Positions 14,015 to 42,533 of a DNA stretch of 64,000 nucleotides are shown piece after piece. A program made the translations under genes and the position numbers. The notes under the pieces were generated by a model, which saw only the letters and a program-made list of their open reading frames with translations, searched no databases and was not told the origin of the DNA. The stretch lies in contig CAZBVQ010000002.1 of NCBI GenBank assembly GCA_964495685.1, positions 38,790-102,789 on the forward strand, read 5' to 3'. This DNA comes from an uncultured Candidatus Saccharibacteria bacterium. Its GTDB lineage: Bacteria > Patescibacteriota > Minisyncoccia > Phycocordibacterales > PALSA-1337. Each line of letters opens with the position of its first letter. Position 1 is the stretch's first letter.

Positions 14015-15913
14015 TTAGATTTCCTCAAGAGAAGAATTCACTATTTGGAGTTTAACTGAGCTTGTTTTTGCACCAGCAGCACCCTTTGAACATGTCAGAT
14101 TAAAAATGTACCTATCGGCAGGAACTCCTGTTGTATTAAACAACCCCGAACCACTTTCGTTACCTGCATCAGGCACAATCTGTGAAGGTGCTGTGGTGAT
14201 AAAATAACACGTATCAAACTCTGACGCCGGATCAATATTCCACTGCAACCTAAATGGCTGTCCTGAAACAACCCTCAGTGATTTGTACAGTGCCGAATAA
14301 TCACTGGTATCCGAATAATCAACCGTCGTCGGCGCTTCATCATTGCGTGTAATCATGAGCTTGAGACCAGATGAAATTCCAGCGACTCCTTCGACATCAA
14401 CACTCGGACACATGACATTCGTAGAGGTATGACTCGCACTATCAGTGACTGTCACACTGGGACCGAATCCATCATCCGTAAATGGTATATTAATCGAATT
14501 TGATCCCGACGCCCCATTCCAATAATACGTATAGGGTGCAGTACCTCCACTAGCAACAGCAGTGAAAGTCACTTTATTTCCAGACACTATCGGACCAGTC
14601 GGACTCTTGGAACAACTCACCGAGACGCCACCAGGATTGACTGGCGGACAATTGGAGGTGCCCGTAACACAGAGTGACACACCGGGCGCGGTTGATGATG
14701 CCGCGAAATTGAGCCATCCTAGCGCACTCGACTCCCATGCATATCCAGAAAAATCGCCCGACGATGGATTGTAGGCCACGCCACCCGAACCGCTCACATG
14801 ATTGCTTCCAGAGAGATGAAGCCATCCTGAAGCAGCATCTTCGGTAACCATCGACAGTATACGAGCCCAACCAGTCACTTTGCCATTGAAGAGGTCCACG
14901 CGTGGTGTGCAAATACTCGAGACACCCGTCGGCAGATCCGCACCAACACCTCCCTGCGCAACTGGTTTGTCATAGGTAGACTCAGATGATGGACATCCCG
15001 TCACATCAGAAGCATTGAAACTCACCCACCCAACATTGGGTGACCAACCGTATCCACTGAAGAGTCCCACGGTCGGCGATGTAGTCGTAGCCACACGGAC
15101 ACTATAATAACTTCCTGCTTTTTGTTGATATAACTGCTGAATTTCTGGTACTGTCAATGCCCGATTGTATACAACAACATCGTCTACCTGGGCTCCACCG
15201 AGTGACGATCCAGCATATGATGAGCCAATGGCCATTTGAGTTGTATTAAGAGCCGCGGTCGATACGGTGTTTGATGTACTTACTGATGCACCATCACCGT
15301 ATATATAATGCGTGGCGCCACTACGAACAGAACACAGCTGATGCCATGTATTGTCACTCAAAGTAATGAAAATGCCATAAGGTGCAGCTGACTCTCGCAC
15401 ACCACCGCCCCACGAATTAGGTATGTTCGCGTTTCTCCCCAGCCACATGCCAGAACTATAGTTTTTGTCGAGAAGACGTTCGTTGTGTCCGTTGACAACA
15501 CCGTCATCCTTGAACCAAACACACACTGTAAAATCGGTGAGCGTCGCAGTAAACGTTGTCAGTACATAATCATTGACACCATCCAATATGAGTGCCTGAG
15601 GACCGGCAACGCCAGTCGTGAAGACTGGACTACCATTCAATGTACCGTTGTAGCCATTACCGCTCGAATCATTACCCGTCGCATTATCGAACGTATATTT
15701 TGCAACCAAACCATAAATAGGTGCCCCTGCATCAGTGTTCGACGCATTGAAACTCACCCAGCCAATATTGGACGACCATGCCCATCCAGTCAGATCATAC
15801 GCCGCGTGAGCACGTGGAATGCTGAAACTACCCAAACACACACATACGACAACCGAGGCAATGAGAGCTACAACCTTGTTAATTGGCATAAAAATAGGGG
15901 TTATGAAAAACAC
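14015..15913 (-). CDS. large secreted protein with a LamG/concanavalin-like domain and three GW..S.N(I/V)GW(V/L)SF repeats
   Basis: 632 aa with an N-terminal signal/TM segment. Repeats: GWAWSSNIGWVSFNAS, GYGWSPNVGWVSFNAS and GYAWESSALGWLNFAAS. The LamG-like stretch is LDGVNDYV...WHQLCSV. Start codon uncertain (GTG at 15913 or ATG at 15889). Confidence 0.55.
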   Translation of the reverse strand: MFFITPIFMPINKVVALIASVVVCVCLGSFSIPRAHAAYDLTGWAWSSNIGWVSFNASNTDAGAPIYGLVAKYTFDNATGNDSSGNGYNGTLNGSPVFTTGVAGPQALILDGVNDYVLTTFTATLTDFTVCVWFKDDGVVNGHNERLLDKNYSSGMWLGRNANIPNSWGGGVRESAAPYGIFITLSDNTWHQLCSVRSGATHYIYGDGASVSTSNTVSTAALNTTQMAIGSSYAGSSLGGAQVDDVVVYNRALTVPEIQQLYQQKAGSYYSVRVATTTSPTVGLFSGYGWSPNVGWVSFNASDVTGCPSSESTYDKPVAQGGVGADLPTGVSSICTPRVDLFNGKVTGWARILSMVTEDAASGWLHLSGSNHVSGSGGVAYNPSSGDFSGYAWESSALGWLNFAASSTAPGVSLCVTGTSNCPPVNPGGVSVSCSKSPTGPIVSGNKVTFTAVASGGTAPYTYYWNGASGSNSINIPFTDDGFGPSVTVTDSASHTSTNVMCPSVDVEGVAGISSGLKLMITRNDEAPTTVDYSDTSDYSALYKSLRVVSGQPFRLQWNIDPASEFDTCYFITTAPSQIVPDAGNESGSGLFNTTGVPADRYIFNLTCSKGAAGAKTSSVKLQIVNSSLEEI

Positions 15914-32409: not shown

Positions 32410-35187
32410 TTATTTCTTGAGAACCTTCTTCAAATATTTACCCGTATAACTCTTGTCGCTTTGCGCCACATCTTCCGGAGTTCCCTTTGCCACAATCTTG
32501 CCACCACGTTCTCCACCTTCAGGACCAATATCTATGACATAGTCAGCATTTTTGACCAAATCGAGGTTGTGCTCGATGACCACCACCGTATTTCCTTTGT
32601 CTACCAATTTTTGCAAAATATCGATCAATTTCTTCACGTCTTCGTAATGCAATCCGACTGTCGGCTCATCTAGCAAGTAAATAGTCTTCTGGAGATGGGC
32701 ACGATACAGCTCAGATGAAATTTTGACGCGCTGCGCTTCACCACCTGACAATGTAGTAGCTGATTGTCCCAACTTCACATAGCCGAGTCCCACATCCATC
32801 AAGCTTTGCAAACGATCTTCAACCGCAGGAATATCTTTGAAAAATTCGAGAGCCTCTTCGATGGTCAATTCGAGTACTTCATGAATATTTTTCTTGCGAT
32901 ACTTAATCTCAAGTGTCTCTTTGGTGAATCGCTTACCGTTACAGACATCACAGGTCACATAGACTGTCGGCAAGAAGTGCATTTCTACAGCGATCTCACC
33001 GTTACCTTCACAGGCTTCACAGCGACCACCAGGACGATTGAATGAGAAACGCCCCGCTCCCCAACCACGCGCACGCGCTTCAGCTTCTGATGCAAACAAA
33101 TCACGAATATGTGTCCATGATCCGGTGTAGGTTGCTGGATTTGAACGTGGTGTGCGGCCGATCGGACTTTGGTCTATAAGAATGACGCGACCAGCATATT
33201 CGGTGCCTTTAAATTCTTTGCAGTTGATCGGCTCATCTGTACGTTTACGCATCTCATAACGTGAAGAAAGATTGCGGTGGAGGATCTCGTACATAAAAGA
33301 AGACTTGCCAGAACCAGAAACTCCGGTGATGACATTCAAGCAACCCAGTGGCACGTCCACATTCATGTCCTTGATATTGAATGCATGACCGTTGCGGATC
33401 ATAATCTTTCCTTTTGGCTCACGGCGTGTAGCAGGCACTTCTATCTTCTCTTCGCCACGCAAGTACGCCAGAGTCAGTGAGCCAGATGCGTTCTTCTTGG
33501 CAGTCAGGAGATCATCGAGATAACCAGAAACAACAACTTTGCCACCATGCACACCAGCACCAGGACCGATGTCTACTATATAGTCAGAGGCGAACATGGT
33601 ATCTTCATCGTGCTCAACGACCAAGATGGTATTACCGAGGTCACGCAAATGAAGGAGTGTCTTGATGAGACGATCGTTGTCACGCTGATGAAGACCGATA
33701 GTCGGTTCATCCAATACGTACAGCGCTCCGACAAGACCTGAGCCAAGCTGTGAGGCCAGACGAATACGCTGAGCCTCTCCTCCAGAAAGTGTGTTGGCGC
33801 GACGATCGAGCGTCAGATATTCGATACCGACATTGACCATGAATGAAAGGCGGGCCTGAATTTCCTTGAGGACCACCTTGGAGATTTCTTTTTCCGCATC
33901 TGTGAGTTTGATGTGCTTGAAATATTCAATAGCATGCTCAATAGACATCGAAGTGGTATCAACGATGTTTTTGTCACCAATTTTGACATGAAGAGCTTCT
34001 TCACGCAGTCGAACTCCATTACATGCCTTACAAATCTCTTCTGCAAACAATCCTTCTGTACCCAATCCGTTACATACTGAACATGCGCCATACGGTGAAT
34101 TGAAGGAGAACAGACGAGGTTCGATTTCTGGATATGAAAAACCATCGTAGGGACACATGAATTTGACTGACATCAAAGTTTCATCTGGTCCAGCAGCCGA
34201 GAGATCCTCGTCGGGAACCGGCGTCGGACTCTGCTGAGTCCGCGCCTGCTTCTCGGCCGTCTTCACGGCCTCCGAAGGCTTCCCGCCGACGACTCTCGGC
34301 TGCTGTCCCCACGGATACTCTATTCGAATCAGTCCTTCAGCTTCATGGACAGCTCGCTCTATAGCTTCGGAGAGACGTTCACGAGCATTACCAGACTGTT
34401 TGGCATCTTTGAACTCACTGACGAATATCTCATCGACCAGCACATCGATGTCATGCTTTTTGTTCTTCTCGAGAATAATCTGGTCACGAAGACGCTGGAT
34501 CTTGCCGTCAATACGTACGCGATCATATCCTTTGCCGAGCATGTCGTAGAGCATCTGGTAGTACTCACCTTTACGACCAACGACGACTGGAGCATAGATA
34601 CGAATTTTGGCATCACTAATGCTGACACCATAGACTTTCTTGGCCTGCGTAGCACGAGTGGTGACAGTCTCCATTATGGTATTGAGAATCTCTTCTTGCG
34701 AAATGCGATGAATGATACGGCCACAGGTCAAACAATGAGGTTTACCGACACGCGCAAAGAGGATACGAAGGTAATCATAAATCTCCGTGATTGTGGCGAC
34801 TGTTGAACGTGGATTGTTCGAACGAGACTTTTGATCAATGGAAATAGCCGGAGAAAGTCCTGAAATCTCATCGACGTCAGGCTTCTGCATTTTATGAAGA
34901 AACTGTCGCGCATATGCTGAAAGTGACTCGACGTAGCGACGCTGTCCTTCGGCAAAAATAGTATCAAACGCGAGCGATGATTTGCCCGAACCAGAGAGAC
35001 CTGTCACGGCAATCATGGTGTTGCGTGGCATCTCGACCGTAATATTTTTGAGGTTATGCGTGCGCGCACCTTTAACGACGATTTTTTCTTCGCCAATGAC
35101 TGGCCTGCCTTCCGAAGCCTTGCGTCGCTCGTCCGAAACGTGTCGCGAAGGAGAGACGGAGGAGGCATGTTTGCGTGCTGCGGTCAT
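32410..35187 (-). CDS. uvrA: excinuclease ABC subunit A
   Basis: 925 aa with two ABC ATPase modules ([10 protein letters not shown] and [10 protein letters not shown]), zinc-finger cysteine clusters and two LSGGEAQR signatures. Confidence 0.95.
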
Positions 35188-35247
35188 AATGGGCGGAGAA
35201 TATCACGAAAACCGCAAAAAATCAACCGGAGTATCCCTACCCTCGTT

Positions 35248-35262
35248 CTAGGCCGGGCCTAG
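35248..35262. repeat. copy of CTAGGCCGGGCCTAG between the uvrA start and the response-regulator stop
   Basis: Identical 15-mer with the TTCTAGG...CTAGAATCC flank. Confidence 0.9.
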
Positions 35263-35269
35263 AATCCTC

Positions 35270-36052
35270 CTATCGAGTCAATCCCCTGACCTCTTCGACG
35301 ATCTGATCGAGTGAAGCGGCCGCTTTGACCAAGAATTTCTGTGCTCCAAGCACCTTGGCACGCTCGATATCGCTCTGTTTGTTGAGGTTGGAAAGTATCA
35401 TGGCTGGAACAGTCTTGAGACGAGGGTCCATCTTGGCCTTCTGGAGAATATCGAAACCACTCATTCCTGGCATCAAAAGATCCAAGATTATAGCATCGGG
35501 TACATGATCGGTGAGATACTGCAGTGCTTCTTGACCATTCTTGGCATGAAAGAGATCGAAGCCGGAAGCGATGAGCTTCTTGGAGAGAATACTACCGATG
35601 AGTTTGTCGTCTTCAACCCAGAGGATCTTCTTCTTTGATCCAGCATCATCGACACTATCAGACGAAGTATATCCGAAAAGTGTATTGACTCGTTTGATGA
35701 TTTCACGGCTATCAGCGTGCATATCCAGAATGAATTCTCGGACTGCACCTTGTGGTACACGAGCCATATTGATAGGTACACCTTGAGTCGAGAGCAGGAA
35801 TACAGGGATTTTAGCGAGGAGAGCTTCGGATTGTTTCTTGGCGAGAATCTGGTATCCATCCATGCCCGGCAACACAATGTCCACCAGGATGAGGTGCGGC
35901 AATGTATCGTAAATACTTTTCATGCCAGCAGTACCGTCAGTGGCAAGTGACGCACTGTAACCTTCTTTCTTGAGAGCTTCGACGACACGACCTCCGAAGA
36001 CGGCTTCGCCTTCGATAACAAGAATCTTCTCTTTCTTGGGAGTAGTTGCCAT
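35270..36052 (-). CDS. response regulator with two tandem receiver (REC) domains and no output domain
   Basis: Two CheY-like units (KILVIEGEAV...LILVDIVLPGMDG and KILWVEDDKL...AIILDLLMPGMSG). Confidence 0.75.
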   Translation of the reverse strand: MATTPKKEKILVIEGEAVFGGRVVEALKKEGYSASLATDGTAGMKSIYDTLPHLILVDIVLPGMDGYQILAKKQSEALLAKIPVFLLSTQGVPINMARVPQGAVREFILDMHADSREIIKRVNTLFGYTSSDSVDDAGSKKKILWVEDDKLIGSILSKKLIASGFDLFHAKNGQEALQYLTDHVPDAIILDLLMPGMSGFDILQKAKMDPRLKTVPAMILSNLNKQSDIERAKVLGAQKFLVKAAASLDQIVEEVRGLTR

Positions 36053-36095
36053 GTATATAGTCTATCACATATGCTAGACTCACCTATACACATCC

Positions 36096-36177
36096 GCCGG
36101 GGTGGTGAAATTGGTAGACACGCATGCCTTAGGAGCATGTAGAGCAATCTGTGGAGGTTCGAGTCCTCTCCCCGGCA
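36096..36177 (+). tRNA. tRNA-Leu (anticodon UAG), type II with a long variable arm
   Basis: Acceptor GCCGGGG / CCCCGGC. 3-bp D stem. Anticodon arm CAUGC-CUUAGGA-GCAUG. T arm GGAGG-UUCGAGU-CCUCU. Confidence 0.8.
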
Positions 36178-36308
36178 CATGAGCGAAGCGAATGGCAAGA
36201 GCAAGACACCTGCGTGTCTTGCGGGAGAAGGACTCGAAAAGGCTGAGTATATTTCTGAGGAGCTTTGCTCCGAAGAAATACGAAGCCTGTACTGCGCCTG
36301 TAAGGCGA

Positions 36309-36327
36309 GAGTCCTCTCCCCGGCACA
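36309..36327 (+). repeat. 19-bp perfect direct repeat of the tRNA-Leu 3' end (GAGTCCTCTCCCCGGCACA), 129 bp downstream of the tRNA
   Basis: Identical to 36161-36179. The region between contains no tRNA 5' half. Confidence 0.85.
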
Positions 36328-36331
36328 AACA

Positions 36332-37087
36332 CTACTTCCTCGAATCCCCCTTTATGGTGGCAATCGCCTCCTGCACCGTCGTCATGAATTGTGCAGGGAA
36401 AATAATAGTTGAGTTCTTCTCAGTAGCAATCTCCGCCATGGTCTGAAGTGTGCGTAGCTGGAGAGCGACTGGATGTTGAGCGATAAGATCAGCTGCTTCA
36501 CCGAGCTTCCGTGCAGCCTGGAATTCACCTTCTGCCGCCACGATCTTGGCACGACGTTCACGTTCTGCTTCTGCTTCCTTGGCCATAGCGCGCTGCATGT
36601 TGTCAGGAAGAACAATGTCTTTGATTTCGACAGCAGTCACTTGTGCGCCCCACGGTTCGGTATGAGCATCGATGACATCTTTGATCTGTACATTGATATC
36701 TGCAGTCTGTGACAAAAGCTGATCAAGTGAAAATCGTCCAACAATGTTACGCACCGTTGTCTGACTGATCTGATTGACCGCATCATAAACATTCTCGATG
36801 GCCACCACTGACTTTTGCGGATCTACGATATGGTAATACGCGACGGCAGCAATATCGATAGAGACGTTGTCCTTCGTAATGATTTTCTGCGAAGGAATAT
36901 TCATAGTGATCGTACGCAAAGTGACCTTGGTCATACGCTCGAATATCGGCACCAGAATAATGAGTCCTGGACCACGCACGCCCGTACACTTGCCGAGGAA
37001 GAAGATAACGCCGCGATCATACTCCTTTACTACTTTGAGTGATAATGCAAGGAGAATGATGACGACTACAATGATGGTATATAGCAT
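36332..37087 (-). CDS. SPFH/band-7 (stomatin/HflC-like) membrane protein
   Basis: N-terminal TM segment, SPFH core, and a coiled-coil tail ([22 protein letters not shown]). Confidence 0.85.
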
Positions 37088-37108
37088 AAATAGAGTATAG
37101 CGCGTTTT

Positions 37109-37639
37109 TTATTTTCCGCCAGACTCGAAATCTTGTGTCATTTTGAAAGTCACTTTCCCTCTCAATTTGCCACCCAAGCCTTTGGACTCTATGGATGACA
37201 TAGCTGCATAAAGATCCAGTAATGCCTCGGGCGACTTGTCGAGTTTGTATCTATTAAGTGTATAGCCATTTTTGAGATACTCTCGCAATACACCAGTAGC
37301 CCAGATGCGGAACTGGGTAGCCTTCTTTGAATTGACGCGGTAGCCGACGGCGATGATAGCATCGAGGTTGTAGCATTCAATTTGGCGTTTTACGGTTCTA
37401 CCACCCTCTTTTTGAACTTGTTCCAAAATGGAACAAGTTGAATTTTTTATTAATTCACCTTCTCCATATATATTCTGAAGATGCTTAGTTATAGCTTGTG
37501 AGTTTACATCAAATAATTCTGCTATCTGTCCCTGCGTCGCCCAAATCGTATCCTTCTCCACATCAGCTCGTAATTCTATATTCCCATCCTTACCTTCATA
37601 GATAATAATGTTATTCTTTGTGATCGTCTTTGTATTCAT
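37109..37639 (-). CDS. RhuM-family protein, N-terminal portion only (possibly a truncated remnant)
   Basis: ATQFRIWATGVLREYLKNGY is the RhuM-family signature. The ORF is about half the length of typical family members. Confidence 0.55.
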   Translation of the reverse strand: MNTKTITKNNIIIYEGKDGNIELRADVEKDTIWATQGQIAELFDVNSQAITKHLQNIYGEGELIKNSTCSILEQVQKEGGRTVKRQIECYNLDAIIAVGYRVNSKKATQFRIWATGVLREYLKNGYTLNRYKLDKSPEALLDLYAAMSSIESKGLGGKLRGKVTFKMTQDFESGGK

Positions 37640-37873
37640 AGTACTTTAAATTAACTAATAAAAAAACCTGATGACGTATGTATCATCAAGTATTTGTGTG
37701 TATTGAGGAGGAATTTCAGGTGGGAGAGCCGTTAAAAAGTTAGTTGATTAATGCATGAATTATATCACGGCTTTCGAAAAATTCCGGCTAGTTCAAATTT
37801 ACTGTTATTTCTAGTCACTCCCCAAAGCGACATACACCGGCGGAATCACTGATGGGCTTTGGGTGGTCTAAAC

Positions 37874-37898
37874 AAAAATCGGCCCGAGGCCGATTTTT
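37874..37898. terminator. perfect bidirectional terminator hairpin AAAAATCGGCC-CGA-GGCCGATTTTT
   Basis: 11-bp perfect stem with symmetric A and T runs between two minus-strand genes. Confidence 0.65.
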
Positions 37899-38090
37899 GT
37901 AATTTACCTTCTACTCTTCTTTGAAGTTTTTTTCTTTTTAGAAGATCCTTTCTTTTTCGTAGCCTTTTTCTTTTTTGCCATATATGTGGAGAAAATGTTA
38001 TTAAGGTCGACAGCCTTTAATTGATATGTAAATTATTGTATCACACATCCATTGAAAACAATCTTACTTTTTAAAATAAAATTTAATTTA

Positions 38091-38729
38091 TTATTTTTTT
38101 AACGCACTAAATTTATACTCCCACCCCGGCTGCCACTTGAACTTCGTGATCACCAACGTCTCTAGCGGCACCCCATTCACCACATGCTCAATACCATACT
38201 GCGTCGCACGATGACCGATCACCATGACACGCTTGCCTTGATAGTTCTTGATCAAATCCTCCAAGAATGACCTCATGCGCGCCGTCGTCTGCGTGTAGCT
38301 CTCACCGTTTGGAAATGGTGTCTCGATGCGCTTCGGCTTCTCCACATCCACCTGCTCGCTTGGCGCCTGCGTCAGATCGCCATAGTTACATTCACGAAGC
38401 CGGGCGTCCTGAATAATCGGCCATTTGGAACCAAAACCAATCTCGGCACTCTTGTATGCCCGCTGTAGATCCGAGCAGAAAATAGCGTCGAAGTGGTCTT
38501 CCTTGTAACGTTCTCCCATTTCCTTGGATTGCTGAATACCGAGAGGCGACAAGGCTACGTCATTGTGGCCAGATGACAAATGGGCTTCGTTATCAAATGT
38601 GGTGCCGTGAGCTTCGAAGATGAGGGTGAGTATGGGTGTAGGATAGTGTGATTTGAGGCTTATTTCTAGGCCTGTTTTTTGATATTGACAATATACTATA
38701 TTATATGTTAACATGTTATTGGCGGTCAA
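38091..38729 (-). CDS. histidine phosphatase (phosphoglycerate-mutase-like) family protein
   Basis: HGTT...SPLG...GHRATQ pattern, with the catalytic RHG replaced by AHG. It has an unusual 30-aa N-terminal extension that contains a half-copy (TCTAGGCCTG, 38655-38664) of the palindromic repeat. Confidence 0.6.
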   Translation of the reverse strand: MTANNMLTYNIVYCQYQKTGLEISLKSHYPTPILTLIFEAHGTTFDNEAHLSSGHNDVALSPLGIQQSKEMGERYKEDHFDAIFCSDLQRAYKSAEIGFGSKWPIIQDARLRECNYGDLTQAPSEQVDVEKPKRIETPFPNGESYTQTTARMRSFLEDLIKNYQGKRVMVIGHRATQYGIEHVVNGVPLETLVITKFKWQPGWEYKFSALKK

Positions 38730-38752
38730 ACATTCAAAACTGGAACGAAACT

Positions 38753-39250
38753 ATGAAAAGATTGAAAATCCTTGTGTTCGATGACAACGAAAATCATCGT
38801 AAAGCTGCCGGTGCGCAGCTCGGAAAGAAGCACGACTTGGAGGTTGTCGGGACCTACCGTGAAGCGGAGAAAGCCCTCGAGAATTTCGACGGCAAAACCA
38901 AGCTCTTCGACGCCGTTCTCACTGACTTACTCGTCCCCCCATCGGACCGGTCACAAACCACTCCAACACATGCTGGACAGGAAATGCCGATCGGGGTCTT
39001 CATCGGCCTCGCCGCGGCGGTCAACGCTGGTGCGAAACATGTCGTTGTTTTTACTGACATGAATCACCATAATCACCCGGCCTCGGCGTGCCTCGACCCG
39101 TTCGGGCGCACCCCATTCATGGTGAACGGCTGCAAGGTGGTCTTCAGCAATTCGCCAAATTGGATGTGCGAGCACAAAGGCCAGACAGTCAAAAACTGGG
39201 CCCACGCGCTTGAGTACATCCTCAAGACCCCGGCAAAAACTGGATCGTGA
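38753..39250 (+). CDS. receiver (CheY-like) domain protein, atypical
   Basis: KILVFDDNENHRKAAGAQL...FDAVLTDLLVPP resembles an REC fold. No output domain. Confidence 0.4.
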   Translation: MKRLKILVFDDNENHRKAAGAQLGKKHDLEVVGTYREAEKALENFDGKTKLFDAVLTDLLVPPSDRSQTTPTHAGQEMPIGVFIGLAAAVNAGAKHVVVFTDMNHHNHPASACLDPFGRTPFMVNGCKVVFSNSPNWMCEHKGQTVKNWAHALEYILKTPAKTGS

Positions 39251-39332
39251 CACAACGTCACACGAGCCGAAAGTGCTCATCACAAAACTTTTCACCCCGC
39301 CTGGCGCACTGCCGAGCGGGGTTTTTACTTAC

Positions 39333-39821
39333 TTATTTTTTCAGTAAAGCATCCCTTAGATTAGCAATTAACGTCATCTTTCCTCTGTTATCAGACAAGA
39401 GATAACCAGCATATTTCAACTCATTAAAACGACCATGCGCAACATGATTTCTAAGATCTTGGACCTGTCGCATAAGCTTAATAAATGGATCATTTTTCTC
39501 GGTATGCAATTCCTCAATAATTTTAATTTTTTCACCGAAATGAAGTTTTGAAATTATTATTTCCATAGCTTCTTTACGTGCACCCACATAAACTTCTGGT
39601 TCAATAATCAGTGATTCCGCTTCCCGCTCAACGAAATATGCAATCCAGAATACAAAATCAACCGCATCAAATTGATCATTTGATAATGAGAACCGCTCGC
39701 GCACCATTTTTTTAGCAATGTCTTTTTCGAGGCCACTAAAATCAATTCCATACTTGGCAGCGAACTTAATCAAGTCTGCAGGATTTCCATCTACAATTTT
39801 CTTTAATTCCTCTTCTGTCAT
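39333..39821 (-). CDS. hypothetical protein with a C-terminal HEPN-like R-x4-H motif (LRNHVAHGRF, HepT/DUF86-like)
   Basis: Motif read directly. The ORF start overlaps the uvrB 3' end by about 56 nt. An internal ATG at 39707 (MVRERF) would avoid the overlap. Confidence 0.35.
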   Translation of the reverse strand: MTEEELKKIVDGNPADLIKFAAKYGIDFSGLEKDIAKKMVRERFSLSNDQFDAVDFVFWIAYFVEREAESLIIEPEVYVGARKEAMEIIISKLHFGEKIKIIEELHTEKNDPFIKLMRQVQDLRNHVAHGRFNELKYAGYLLSDNRGKMTLIANLRDALLKK

Positions 39822-41913
39822 TTTTTAAGCTATTATTTCTCTTCCCCACCCCCTTCTCCTTCTTAGCCTTTTTTACTTCAGCAGCACTCCTCCTCTCCAA
39901 CTCAATCAACTCATCCCGTATAAGTGCCGCCGTCTCGAAATCCAACATCTTCACCGCCTCCTCCATAGCCTCCTGCTTCTGCTTCATCAGCAACTTGGGA
40001 TTGGTGCGCGCCAGTTCTTCATCGAGCTTCACGAGCTCATTCACGGCCTTATCATGCTCGGTGCGCAACTGATCGGTAATATCATGAATGGCCTTCTTGA
40101 TGGTCTGGGGGGTGATGCCATGCTCAGTATTGTAGGCAATTTGGAGAGCTCGTCGACGGTTGGTCTCCTTGATGGCATTGTCCATGGAGCCGGTGAGGTT
40201 GTCGGCATAAAGGATGACACGACCAGCAGCGTTACGAGCGGCACGACCGATGGTCTGGATGAGTGAAGTTTCGGAGCGCAGGAATCCTTCCTTGTCAGCA
40301 TCGAGGATACCGATGAGCGACACCTCGGGCAGGTCGAGTCCTTCACGCAGGAGATTGACGCCGACGAGGATGTCGTACTTCCCTTTGCGGAAATCGGTGA
40401 GAATAGTGATGCGCTCGATGGTCTTGACGTCACTGTGGAGATAGGCGGCCTTGATGTTTTTCTCCTTGAGAAACTCAGAAAGATCCTCGGCCATTTTCTT
40501 GGTCAAGGTCGTCGCCAAGACACGATCACCTTTGGCGATGGTCTTCTCCGCTTCATCGATGAAGTCGAAGATTTGACCTTTGTAATTGCCAGACTCCCGT
40601 ATCGGTCGTATCTCGACGATAGGATCAGTGAGCCCCGTCGGACGAATGACTTGCTCTGCCACCTGCTTACTCATTTCCTTCTCATACTTCCCTGGTGTCG
40701 CTGAGGTAAAAATCATCGGACCCACACGCTCCAAGAATTCATCGAACTTGAGTGGTCGGTTATCTTTTGCACTCGGCAGACGGAATCCATGTTCCACCAA
40801 CGTATTCTTGCGCGATGCATCACCGGCATACATACCATTGAGTTGCGGAATGGTCACATGCGATTCATCGACAATGGTGAGGAAGTCCGCCACCATCTTG
40901 CCTGTCTTGGGATCTTTCTTTTTAGGGAAATAGGACAGAAGCGTATCTGGTGGTTCGCCCGGCATCATTCCCGAGAAATGACGTGAGTAGTTCTCGATAC
41001 CGTTGGTGTAGCCAATTTCTTTGATCATCGAGAGATCGTACTTCACGCGGCGCTTGAGGCGCTCGGCTTCGAGCATCTTGCCAGCTTTCTCAAGCTCTTT
41101 GAGTCGCGCGACCAATTCTGCCTGAATAGTTTTGTACGCACGCTCACTCTGCTCATCAGTCGAGATGAAGTGCTTGGCCGGAAATATGAAAACGGTTTCG
41201 TGAGTGGCGCGTACCGATCGTGAGACTGGATCAAGTTCAGTGATAGTAGAAATGGCACTGCCTTCATATTCCAGACGATAAATAGTCTTCTCATTCACCG
41301 GCATAATCTCGATAGTATTACCGATGGCACGGAAATTGCCCGAATTGACATCGGCCGTGGTGCGCTCGAAATGAATGTCGATGAGTTTACGGATAAGTTC
41401 GGCACGCGAGAGTTCCATGCCAACTTTGAGTTTGAGATTCACTTTCTCGTATTCTTCAGGACTACCCAAACCATATATGCAAGAAACCGATGCCACGATG
41501 ATGACATCTTTCCTGGTGAGAAGTGCCTGCGTCGATGCGTGGCGCAATCGCTCGATCTCCTCGTTGATCATGGCCTCCTTTTCTATGTACGTATCGCTGG
41601 AAGGAATGTAAGCCTCAGGCTGATAGTAGTCATAGTACGAAACGAAGTAATGCACGGCATTGTTGGGGAAAAATTCGCGGTACTCCTGGGCGAGCTGAGC
41701 TGCCAGCGTCTTGTTGTGAGCAATGACGAGTGTTGGTTTGCCATACTGCGCGATGACATTGGCGGCGGTGAATGTTTTGCCGGAGCCGGTCACGCCGAGG
41801 AGGGTCTGCGGATCAAGACCCTTTTTGAGCCCCTCCACCAACGCAGAAATAGCCCGAGGCTGATCGCCGGCGGGTGTGAGGGTGGTTGCGAGTTTGAAGG
41901 GTGAAGAGCTCAT
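39766..41913 (-). CDS. uvrB: excinuclease ABC subunit B
   Basis: TPAGDQPRAI, GVTGSGKTFT Walker A, helicase motifs, and a C-terminal UVR motif (FETAALIRDELIELE) followed by a basic tail of about 45 aa. Start set at MSSSPFKL. Confidence 0.95.
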   Translation of the reverse strand: MSSSPFKLATTLTPAGDQPRAISALVEGLKKGLDPQTLLGVTGSGKTFTAANVIAQYGKPTLVIAHNKTLAAQLAQEYREFFPNNAVHYFVSYYDYYQPEAYIPSSDTYIEKEAMINEEIERLRHASTQALLTRKDVIIVASVSCIYGLGSPEEYEKVNLKLKVGMELSRAELIRKLIDIHFERTTADVNSGNFRAIGNTIEIMPVNEKTIYRLEYEGSAISTITELDPVSRSVRATHETVFIFPAKHFISTDEQSERAYKTIQAELVARLKELEKAGKMLEAERLKRRVKYDLSMIKEIGYTNGIENYSRHFSGMMPGEPPDTLLSYFPKKKDPKTGKMVADFLTIVDESHVTIPQLNGMYAGDASRKNTLVEHGFRLPSAKDNRPLKFDEFLERVGPMIFTSATPGKYEKEMSKQVAEQVIRPTGLTDPIVEIRPIRESGNYKGQIFDFIDEAEKTIAKGDRVLATTLTKKMAEDLSEFLKEKNIKAAYLHSDVKTIERITILTDFRKGKYDILVGVNLLREGLDLPEVSLIGILDADKEGFLRSETSLIQTIGRAARNAAGRVILYADNLTGSMDNAIKETNRRRALQIAYNTEHGITPQTIKKAIHDITDQLRTEHDKAVNELVKLDEELARTNPKLLMKQKQEAMEEAVKMLDFETAALIRDELIELERRSAAEVKKAKKEKGVGKRNNSLKNDRRGIKENCRWKSCRLD

Positions 41914-42085
41914 GAACATCAATAAGAATGTCACATTTTGGGAAGTAAGAATACTTGACTTATAACTATATAATATGTTATAATCGTGAAGTAAGCTCAT
42001 TGAGATCACCGAGTCAAGTTCACTTCAGGAATTGGTCCCTCCATGGTGAAGGGGTCAAAACTGTAGTGAACAAGTTGAAAACAAT

Positions 42086-42484
42086 ATGAACACGATAAAA
42101 AGTTCCTTCGTATGGATAGCTGGGCTGATCCTCGTCAGCATCACACTCGTCGGTTTTATCAAATTGGTCAACTGGTCCGGTAAAGAGAGCCGGAGACACT
42201 TCGATGAAACCCACCTGACCATTAATGATGGTATCGGGTACCACGTTGAACGCAAGGACGGAGGTATCGCCGATCTGAAAGGTTGGCGCGTACATAGTAA
42301 TTGCCCGAGCGTCCTGGGCGATCTGAATCTGCTCGTGATCACGAACAGTGGTCGAGTAGCTCAGGTATTCACAGGAAAACCTATCGAACCCGGGACGAAA
42401 GTGTTAATTAAGGGCATCACGCACAAGGTCGTCTCGACGGCGGTAGGTGAGATCAGCTTCCTAACCGCTGAAGTGGCGAAGTAA
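42086..42484 (+). CDS. hypothetical N-terminally membrane-anchored protein
   Basis: 132 aa with a signal/TM segment. No family recognised. Confidence 0.4.
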   Translation: MNTIKSSFVWIAGLILVSITLVGFIKLVNWSGKESRRHFDETHLTINDGIGYHVERKDGGIADLKGWRVHSNCPSVLGDLNLLVITNSGRVAQVFTGKPIEPGTKVLIKGITHKVVSTAVGEISFLTAEVAK

Positions 42485-42490
42485 CCCAAT

Positions 42491-42533
42491 AGCGCATCGT
42501 CCCCTCCCGGGCGGTGCGCTGGTTTTTTATATC
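42491..42533 (+). terminator. terminator module AGCGCATCGTCCCCTCCCGGGCGGTGCGCTGGTTTTTTATATC (copy 1)
   Basis: Stem GCGCAUCG / CGGUGCGC with a T-run. An almost identical copy is at 43066-43108. Confidence 0.6.

Follow-up and report, generated by a model that had tools for sequence, protein, structure and literature searches.

To our knowledge, few defense or toxin systems have been described in bacteria of the candidate phyla radiation. Known systems close to the locus analyzed here include HEPN and RhuM proteins. In HEPN domains, helix 3 ends in an R-x4-6-H motif whose arginine is followed by a polar residue, helix 2 carries an acidic residue, and these two helices are often separated by inserts; fusions of RhuM with Doc are also recorded (PMC3710099). 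In a preprint, one PDC-S05 (RhuM-domain) gene protected E. coli against T7, T5, and T4. We analyzed a DNA stretch of 64,000 nucleotides (nt) from an uncultured Candidatus Saccharibacteria bacterium (contig CAZBVQ010000002.1, positions 38,790 to 102,789; here called the window) and, in it, the interval between uvrB and the gene for a double-receiver response regulator. This interval contains genes for a HEPN-domain protein, a receiver (REC)-like protein, a histidine phosphatase, and a short protein with the RhuM N-terminal module (RhuM-short), the last one followed by an SPFH/Band-7 gene (Table 1). The source names of homologues and of related contigs put the window among the Paceibacterota/"Candidatus Taylorbacteria" of the Patescibacteria. 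The interval is likely a hotspot of insertion and recombination, and its cargo is likely four intact genes that do not make up one system. A first-pass annotation, made from the DNA letters, had described the block as an accessory island with toxin/defense-type remnants; the block does encode a genuine HEPN protein and a genuine relative of RhuM, but the genes are intact and not decayed.

The uvrB survey, with one genome per species, covered 80 related Paceibacterota/Taylorbacteria loci (protein identity, 69% to 93%). The double-receiver gene starts within 300 base pairs (bp) of the uvrB match in 51 of the 80 loci and is followed by uvrA in most of the 51. No homologues of the HEPN-like, REC-like, or phosphatase genes were found at any of the 80 loci within the fetched flanks; the block is thus variable, as first proposed, and not syntenic across the lineage. 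A subset of the loci has an SPFH gene between uvrB and the receiver gene, and unrelated cargo occupies the same site in other species: DUF4258, DUF3800, and PIN_12 proteins, an alpha/beta hydrolase, a methyltransferase, pilin-like and HD_4 proteins, and family-less open reading frames (ORFs). Since the cargo at the same place differs across species, the space downstream of uvrB is an insertion hotspot, and presence and absence at the same locus, as for a genomic island, were seen in the comparison of the 80 loci. RhuM-short followed by SPFH was also identified in metagenome loci L098, L100, L102, L103, and L124, and the flanking uvrB and double-receiver genes are visible around the pair in L100, L102, and L103. 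RhuM-short comes immediately after uvrB in L102, while L103 has another insert after uvrB, consisting of a 196-amino-acid (aa) ORF and a pilin-like ORF. Only positions ~37640 to 39821 are specific to the strain group of the window. What speaks against an inserted element is that we identified no integrase or transposase gene in the region from 35 to 42 kb and no flanking repeat bounding the block; the only notable repeat, an 18-nt copy of the 3' end of tRNA-Leu, lies outside the block, at a distance of 130 nt from the tRNA.

Homologous contigs from three other samples were 100% identical to the window over the region, and three more were ~96% to 97% identical with unchanged gene order. Compared with the related strain L002, the window uvrB differs at ~6% of positions, with 116 synonymous and 3 nonsynonymous codon changes. 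The segment from 36300 to 38400, comprising SPFH, RhuM-short, the gap upstream of it, and the 3' part of the phosphatase gene, showed one difference, the 451-nt gap itself differing at one position. A 500-nt patch (38400 to 38900) has 34 differences, with near-identical stretches on either side, and takes in the 5' ends of both the phosphatase gene and the REC-like gene, their shared promoter region, and the lost ATG of the phosphatase. Two differences occur in the next segment (38900 to 40000), which extends from the 3' part of the REC-like gene across the HEPN gene and into the end of uvrB. This mosaic of identity fits recent recombination tracts that may have carried the island between strains. 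The G+C contents are 35% for the HEPN gene, 40% for RhuM-short, and 33% for the gap, with 46.5% for the window, and 51% and 55% for the phosphatase and REC-like genes, respectively, which are similar to uvrB (51%). At third codon positions, the values are 29% for the HEPN gene, 41% for RhuM-short, and 47% to 66% for five of the seven other genes measured. The rest of the window contains no paralogues of the island genes.

The R-x4-H motif that had been pointed out in the ORF adjoining uvrB is present, as R124 and H129 within LRNHVAHGRF (residues 123 to 132 of 162). A lone motif of this kind is frequent by chance. Here, R124, H129, and E65 were invariant in 33 close homologues (alignment A1) and in 45 distant ones (alignment A2; identity down to 16%), and N125 was at least 90% conserved. 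The family comprises 55 homologue clusters, nearly all with proteins of 160 to 170 aa that share at least 41% identity with the window protein, the length of which is typical of its own family. All of the organism-named members are from Patescibacteria. An exhaustive profile search at E values of up to 1e-3 gave only 128 relatives among 1.84 billion representative proteins, and no relatives were found on IMG/VR viral contigs. The AlphaFold model (pLDDT score, 92.7) has a long helix (residues 48 to 78) carrying E65, a helical hairpin, a helix ending in R124...H129, a beta-hairpin, and a last helix, which is the arrangement described for HEPN domains in PMC3710099. The polar residue (N, D, or H) expected after the arginine is present in R124-N-H-V-A-H129, and E65 is the acidic residue of helix 2; the x3-[KR] part of the typical E-x3-[KR] is unmatched, residue 69 being a glutamate.

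Sub-threshold matches of the protein and its relatives were almost only to HEPN families, namely, the PADLOC models CARF_HEPN (E, 5.7e-5), Cas13c (2.7e-5), Csx1, and Csm6 and the Pfam families HEPN_Apea (4.4e-4), RiboL-PSP (1e-3), Swt1, and Abi_2. Three results count against the assignment: no Pfam or NCBIfam family scored above the threshold for the 162-aa protein; the family profiles gave nothing significant against PDB (none with A1 and only HepS, E = 0.045, with A2, aligned over F-x2-K-I...R-N-x2-A-H); and a Foldseek search of PDB with the model was not significant (best E = 0.8). Taken together, we consider it highly probable that the 162-aa protein is a HEPN-superfamily member of an uncatalogued family absent from Pfam. 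A non-catalytic HEPN-fold regulator of the MtlR/YggD kind, binding protein or RNA, is an unlikely alternative, since the R-N-x3-H motif and the upstream glutamate, which are lost in inactive HEPN families, are strictly invariant across this family; moreover, the Pfam scan at E values of up to 1 gave no MtlR match, and the weak profile matches go to catalytic HEPN RNases. Judging from its conserved active site and from what HEPN families are known to do, the protein is most likely a metal-independent endoribonuclease that would serve as a stand-alone toxin or abortive-infection effector. A solo protein of a small family seen almost only in Patescibacteria, with the full E...R-N-x3-H active site, it would presumably act as a dimer, in stress, in abortive infection, or as a toxin.

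The start of the HEPN ORF overlaps the 3' end of uvrB, as previously noted, and by 56 nt. In the strains that are ~96% to 97% identical over the region, the uvrB stop codon overlaps the HEPN start codon as ATGA, and the longer overlap in the window is due to a single-base difference from these strains. In four of the seven other homologue contexts examined, the HEPN gene is 1 to 4 nt behind the upstream gene, and the gene is probably cotranscribed and translationally coupled with the gene ahead of it, which is uvrB here. The upstream genes encode a methyltransferase; a protein of 255 aa, within a Dcm/MutH/GHKL-ATPase/Vsr cluster; and a Schlafen-type helicase, the gene of which adjoins those for a Ymh-HEPN protein, a MazG-like protein, and a PLD nuclease. 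A defense-like neighborhood was seen in only ~3 of the 7 contexts, which detracts from a role as a defense effector. The seven contexts have no common partner gene, and no MNT gene and no REC-like or phosphatase gene was found near the homologues in them; a conserved partner or antitoxin was therefore rejected. The most distant member examined (208 aa; locus L011, 6800 to 14600) is located amid ~12 small family-less ORFs, and this run is flanked by a gene for a TraG-like coupling protein on one side and by NERD and Fic genes on the other. The run in L011 may be a mobile element.

Among the profile searches proposed along with the first-pass annotation, those for RhuM and His_Phos_1 scored above the threshold, whereas those for DUF86/HEPN and Response_reg gave matches below it or none. 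RhuM-short matches Pfam Virulence_RhuM (PF13310) with an E value of 8e-25 and 87.9 bits (cutoff, 33.7), but only at profile positions 1 to 69 of 252; the C-terminal ~180 profile positions of the full RhuM domain are absent. Its full-length relatives have 325 to 351 aa and share with it only the first 135 to 140 residues (38% to 56% identity). Their C-terminal halves are either the RhuM C-terminal part or a Doc/Fic-like domain with HPFxDGNKR, in agreement with the RhuM-Doc fusions of PMC3710099. A clade of short forms of 171 to 173 aa, found in at least seven other loci (L013 and L098 to L103) and 56% to 77% identical to RhuM-short, has its own tail, GKL[KR]G[KR]..[FIL]K[LM]T, and a common end point. 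Given the shared length, tail, and end point, RhuM-short represents a stable short variant rather than a gene truncated recently. The signature and the roughly half length that had been noted are real, as is the Pfam match.

In six loci, RhuM-short is directly upstream of the SPFH gene, and the two would form a conserved neighboring pair in which RhuM-short is a stable short variant lacking the effector domain. In L007, a RhuM-short gene is also 1.7 kb from the HEPN homologue. RhuM-short matched the PADLOC PDC-S05 models, which include short and long ones, with E values down to 5e-58. The profile of its relatives gave no meaningful match against PDB, and Pfam Bro-N matched the N-terminal module only weakly (E = 0.14). 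Because the effector half is absent, we infer that a regulatory or adaptor role is likelier than a toxic one. At L100 (4926 to 5964), tandem genes for the RhuM N-terminal module, a 192-aa short form and a 136-aa copy, are located upstream of SPFH. A 151-aa ORF beside RhuM in L013, which has no Pfam match, was considered as a homologue of the REC-like protein, but no homology was found.

The histidine phosphatase matched Pfam His_Phos_1 with an E value of 5.6e-31 and 108.2 bits (cutoff, 21.7). It has homologues in 3,219 clusters, which, among the 120 matches listed, have 175 to 196 aa and are 76% to 99% identical to the window protein. The sequence FEAHGTTFDNEA was invariant in 27 aligned homologues, as were the nucleophile His9, Arg58 (SDLQRA), and the second histidine, His141 (GHRAT). 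The alanine in place of the arginine of the RHG signature, which had been taken as atypical, is present in the window protein and in 27 of the 27 aligned homologues (FEAHG); AHG is thus a family trait and not a sign of decay. The family may interest enzymologists, as the arginine of RHG is normally held to be essential.

The N-terminal extension of ~30 codons that had been ascribed to the phosphatase exists in that the ORF runs that far past the normal start. All of the aligned homologues start with M-[ILVT]-x-[IL]-[IV]-FEAHG, and the codon that is the ATG start in relatives (38631 to 38633) is ATA in the window and in its three identical contigs. Farther upstream, a difference of one base leaves the frame open as far as an ATG at 38714. 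The -35 and -10 elements of a promoter-like sequence that matches at 11 of 12 positions, TTGACC-18-TATAAT (38729 to 38700), lie on either side of this ATG, and this placement argues that the extension is an ORF-calling by-product and probably not translated. It tells against this conclusion that the promoter positions are consensus matches only. The "repeat half-site" reported in the extension could be related only to a palindrome, TGTTAACA (38700 to 38719), which is inside the divergent promoter-like pair. As the normal ATG is ATA in the window strain, the expression of this allele is probably reduced, and the phosphatase would then be a highly conserved protein of the AHG type with lowered expression.

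These data bear on the view that the block is a decaying accessory island with a truncated RhuM, a HepT-like toxin deprived of its MNT antitoxin, and a crippled phosphatase. The RhuM-like ORF does cover only 69 of the 252 Pfam profile positions, the canonical ATG of the phosphatase is lost in the window strain, an MNT gene is absent, and the intergenic DNA is AT rich. However, the short RhuM form is conserved at 60% to 77% identity, with equal length and tail, in at least seven other loci, the HEPN ORF has the normal length of its family and all of the invariant residues, and AHG is invariant in the aligned phosphatase family. Between strains, 14 synonymous and 2 nonsynonymous codon changes were counted in the phosphatase gene. 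The REC-like ORF is also intact, and decay, which these observations largely refute, is very improbable as an explanation of the four genes.

The REC-like protein, which had been recognized as such in the first-pass annotation, has a CheY-like receiver fold and the pocket residues D10, D11, D58, T101, and K147, although its score with Pfam Response_reg was 19.2 bits, below the cutoff of 30.2. A precomputed PF00072 match was present in only 3 of 120 homologues, among the matches listed. At least 123 clusters make up the family, with Patescibacteria as the source of those that carry an organism name. Members are mostly 200 to 260 aa long and include a variable insert of ~50 residues, which the window protein lacks. 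An invariant motif of the family, T-D-x2-H-H-x-H-P-A-S-A (residues 101 to 113), follows strand 4 beside the phospho-acceptor pocket, and its family-specific core, D102-x2-H105-H106-x-H108-P109, might be a metal site. The ORF is intact, and its product is 97% identical to that of a related strain. The protein is a true, orphan receiver of a widespread patescibacterial family.

A divergent gene for a TrmB-type regulator is nearby in three of four contexts of the REC-like gene, with the phosphatase gene never adjacent, and the phosphatase gene is between rpsI and grpE in another Taylorbacteria genome and host-like in composition in the window. A functional link between these two genes was considered and was not seen in the four REC-like contexts or in the one phosphatase context. 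A defense role of the two proteins, as first suggested, did not hold up either: they belong to conserved patescibacterial families, have a host-like composition, and are located in mostly housekeeping neighborhoods in the few genomes examined.

The four genes lie side by side, a compact divergent promoter region containing a palindrome is common to the phosphatase and REC-like genes, and RhuM-short is near a HEPN homologue in L007, all of which could be expected if they formed one module, for example, a phosphatase and a receiver controlling a HEPN toxin, or RhuM-short acting as the antitoxin. Yet no pairing recurs: the HEPN homologues lack a REC-like or phosphatase neighbor in the seven other contexts, the REC-like homologues are near TrmB-type regulators or housekeeping genes, the phosphatase gene is between rpsI and grpE, RhuM-short pairs with SPFH and not with the HEPN gene, and the composition differs sharply among the genes. 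A single module is therefore extremely unlikely, and we favor a hotspot with four separate cargo genes.

A further reading, which is tentative and on balance doubtful, is that the HEPN proteins are a stand-alone RNase family near-exclusive to Patescibacteria, a single-gene abortive-infection or stress effector of tiny-genome epibionts that is spread by recombination and attaches behind the 3' end of any operon, and that, separately, the effector-less RhuM N-terminal module and the SPFH membrane protein are a two-gene variant of the defense candidate PDC-S05. Both the phosphatase gene and the REC-like gene are ordinary genes conserved in the lineage, and as an insertion hotspot, the region is otherwise ordinary. 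The HEPN family, which has an intact active site and no partner and is seen almost only in Patescibacteria, is a cheap target for expression, toxicity, and phage challenge tests. Three false leads were also cleared: the RhuM protein described as truncated is a stable short form linked to SPFH, AHG is a family trait, and the phosphatase extension reflects a lost start codon.

Table 1. Features of the uvrB-uvrA region of the window, in order of position
Feature	Positions	Strand	Remarks
uvrA	32410-35187	-	
Double-receiver response regulator gene	35270-36052	-	Right border of hotspot; directly after uvrB in most relatives
tRNA-Leu(TAG)	36096-36178	+	Between SPFH and double-receiver gene
SPFH/Band-7 gene	36332-37087	-	Downstream of RhuM-short, 21 nt apart here
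RhuM-short (RhuM N-terminal-module protein), 176 aa	37109-37639	-	Contains ATQFRIWATGVLREYLKNGY; clade-specific tail GKLRGKVTFKMTQDFE
AT-rich gap	37640-38090		451 nt, 33% G+C
Hairpin with seven-U run	37666-37691	-	~25 nt upstream of RhuM-short start codon
Perfect bidirectional terminator-like hairpin	37872-37900		13-bp stem, 3-nt loop, flanking A and T runs
Lysine-rich 25-codon ORF, MAKKKKATKKKGSSKKKKTSKKSRR	37904-37981	-	18-nt periodic repeat; ends 3 nt before terminator; candidate gene
Histidine phosphatase (His_Phos_1), FEAHG subfamily	38091-38633	-	Mechanically called ORF reaches 38714 (ATG) or 38729 (TTG)
Overlapping divergent promoter-like sites	38685-38729	Both	Consensus matches only
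REC-like orphan receiver protein, 165 aa	38753-39250	+	
Terminator-like hairpin, CCCCGC...GCGGGG and five T	39295-39326	+	Between convergent REC-like and HEPN genes; for REC-like gene
HEPN-domain protein, solo, 162 aa	39333-39821	-	Predicted active-site residues E65, R124, N125, H129
uvrB	39766-41913	-	Left border of hotspot; last 56 nt overlap HEPN ORF

The AT-rich DNA and the perfect bidirectional terminator previously described between the genes are both present (Table 1). The hairpin upstream of RhuM-short had no Rfam match and a fold z-score of only -1.7; a hairpin with a T run, different in stem sequence, is at the equivalent position in L013 (~14960 to 14990). In the window, this hairpin may act on RhuM-short and SPFH as a leader terminator or attenuator. 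The hairpin following the REC-like gene was read directly from the sequence; the hairpin scan missed it, probably because of too long a loop or bulge. In the divergent promoter-like pair, the minus-strand match described above is directed toward the phosphatase gene, and the plus-strand match, TTGACA-18-TAACAT with TG, is directed toward the REC-like gene. A perfect 14-nt inverted repeat, GCGGAATCACTGAT, has one arm in the AT-rich gap (37840 to 37853) and the other inside the HEPN ORF (39607 to 39620), whereas chance would give ~0.02 such pairs in 3.1 kb. An origin of the repeat as a remnant of another HEPN copy was rejected, since only four residues match on translation.

The Rfam search over 35000 to 42500 gave tRNA-Leu only. 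The last 18 nt of this tRNA, GAGTCCTCTCCCCGGCAC, are repeated downstream at 36309 to 36326, just before the SPFH stop codon, an arrangement suggestive of a scar of the att type or of a small insertion. In L102 and L103, there are only 21 to 50 nt between SPFH and the receiver gene, with no space for a tRNA. The order uvrB, double-receiver response regulator, and uvrA is kept in most of the 80 related Paceibacterota genomes, and a two-component-type protein is thus placed between two excision-repair genes (window, 32410 to 42009; loci L015 to L092). Position 41913 is a plausible start codon of the window uvrB. The uvrB ORF has 1,033 aa in L103 (95 to 3196) and 834 aa in L100 (2247 to 4751), where the match is interrupted by an insert of ~380 nt, compared with ~700 aa elsewhere; the inserts in L103 and L100 may be inteins.

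Compared with canonical single-domain CheY-like receivers, which lack it, the REC-like family has the D-x2-HH-x-HP motif, and unlike typical single-domain response regulators, the REC-like gene has no adjacent histidine kinase gene. The phosphatase resembles branch 1 histidine phosphatases (PhoE/CobC/SixA-like) in its strong Pfam match and in its catalytic His/Arg/His residues, but the arginine of RHG is alanine in the aligned family, and no NCBIfam equivalog cutoff was reached. The N-terminal 135 residues of RhuM-short align with full-length RhuM proteins of the PDC-S05 group; unlike these, RhuM-short lacks the C-terminal 180 to 200 residues and has instead a 35-residue clade-specific tail and a fixed SPFH neighbor.

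The HEPN protein differs from MtlR/YggD, a gammaproteobacterial family, in giving no sequence-profile match to it, in lacking mannitol genes nearby, and in its invariant catalytic motif, which is lost in much of the MtlR family. The AMPylation site of HepT is R-x4-H-x-Y, the tyrosine included. The window protein has an arginine and not a tyrosine two residues after the histidine (H-G-R), has no DUF86 match in Pfam, and has no neighboring MNT gene, and a crude regular expression for the MNT motif (GS...D-x-D) matched no ORF of at least 70 aa in the window; the HepT/MNT type and the cognate MNT proposed for it were thus abandoned. The window protein is shorter than stand-alone HEPN RNases, carries three additional helices at the N terminus and, after the motif, a beta-hairpin, reaches no family threshold, and has named homologues in Patescibacteria only. 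Nevertheless, like Abi2/AbiD-F, Swt1-like, RiboL-PSP, and Apea proteins and HepS of the Salmonella Gifsy-1 prophage, it is a single-domain protein with R-N-x3-H ending core helix 3 and an invariant glutamate upstream, and, as with stand-alone HEPN RNases, its gene has no adjacent antitoxin gene and is located beside restriction-modification-type and other defense genes in some genomes.

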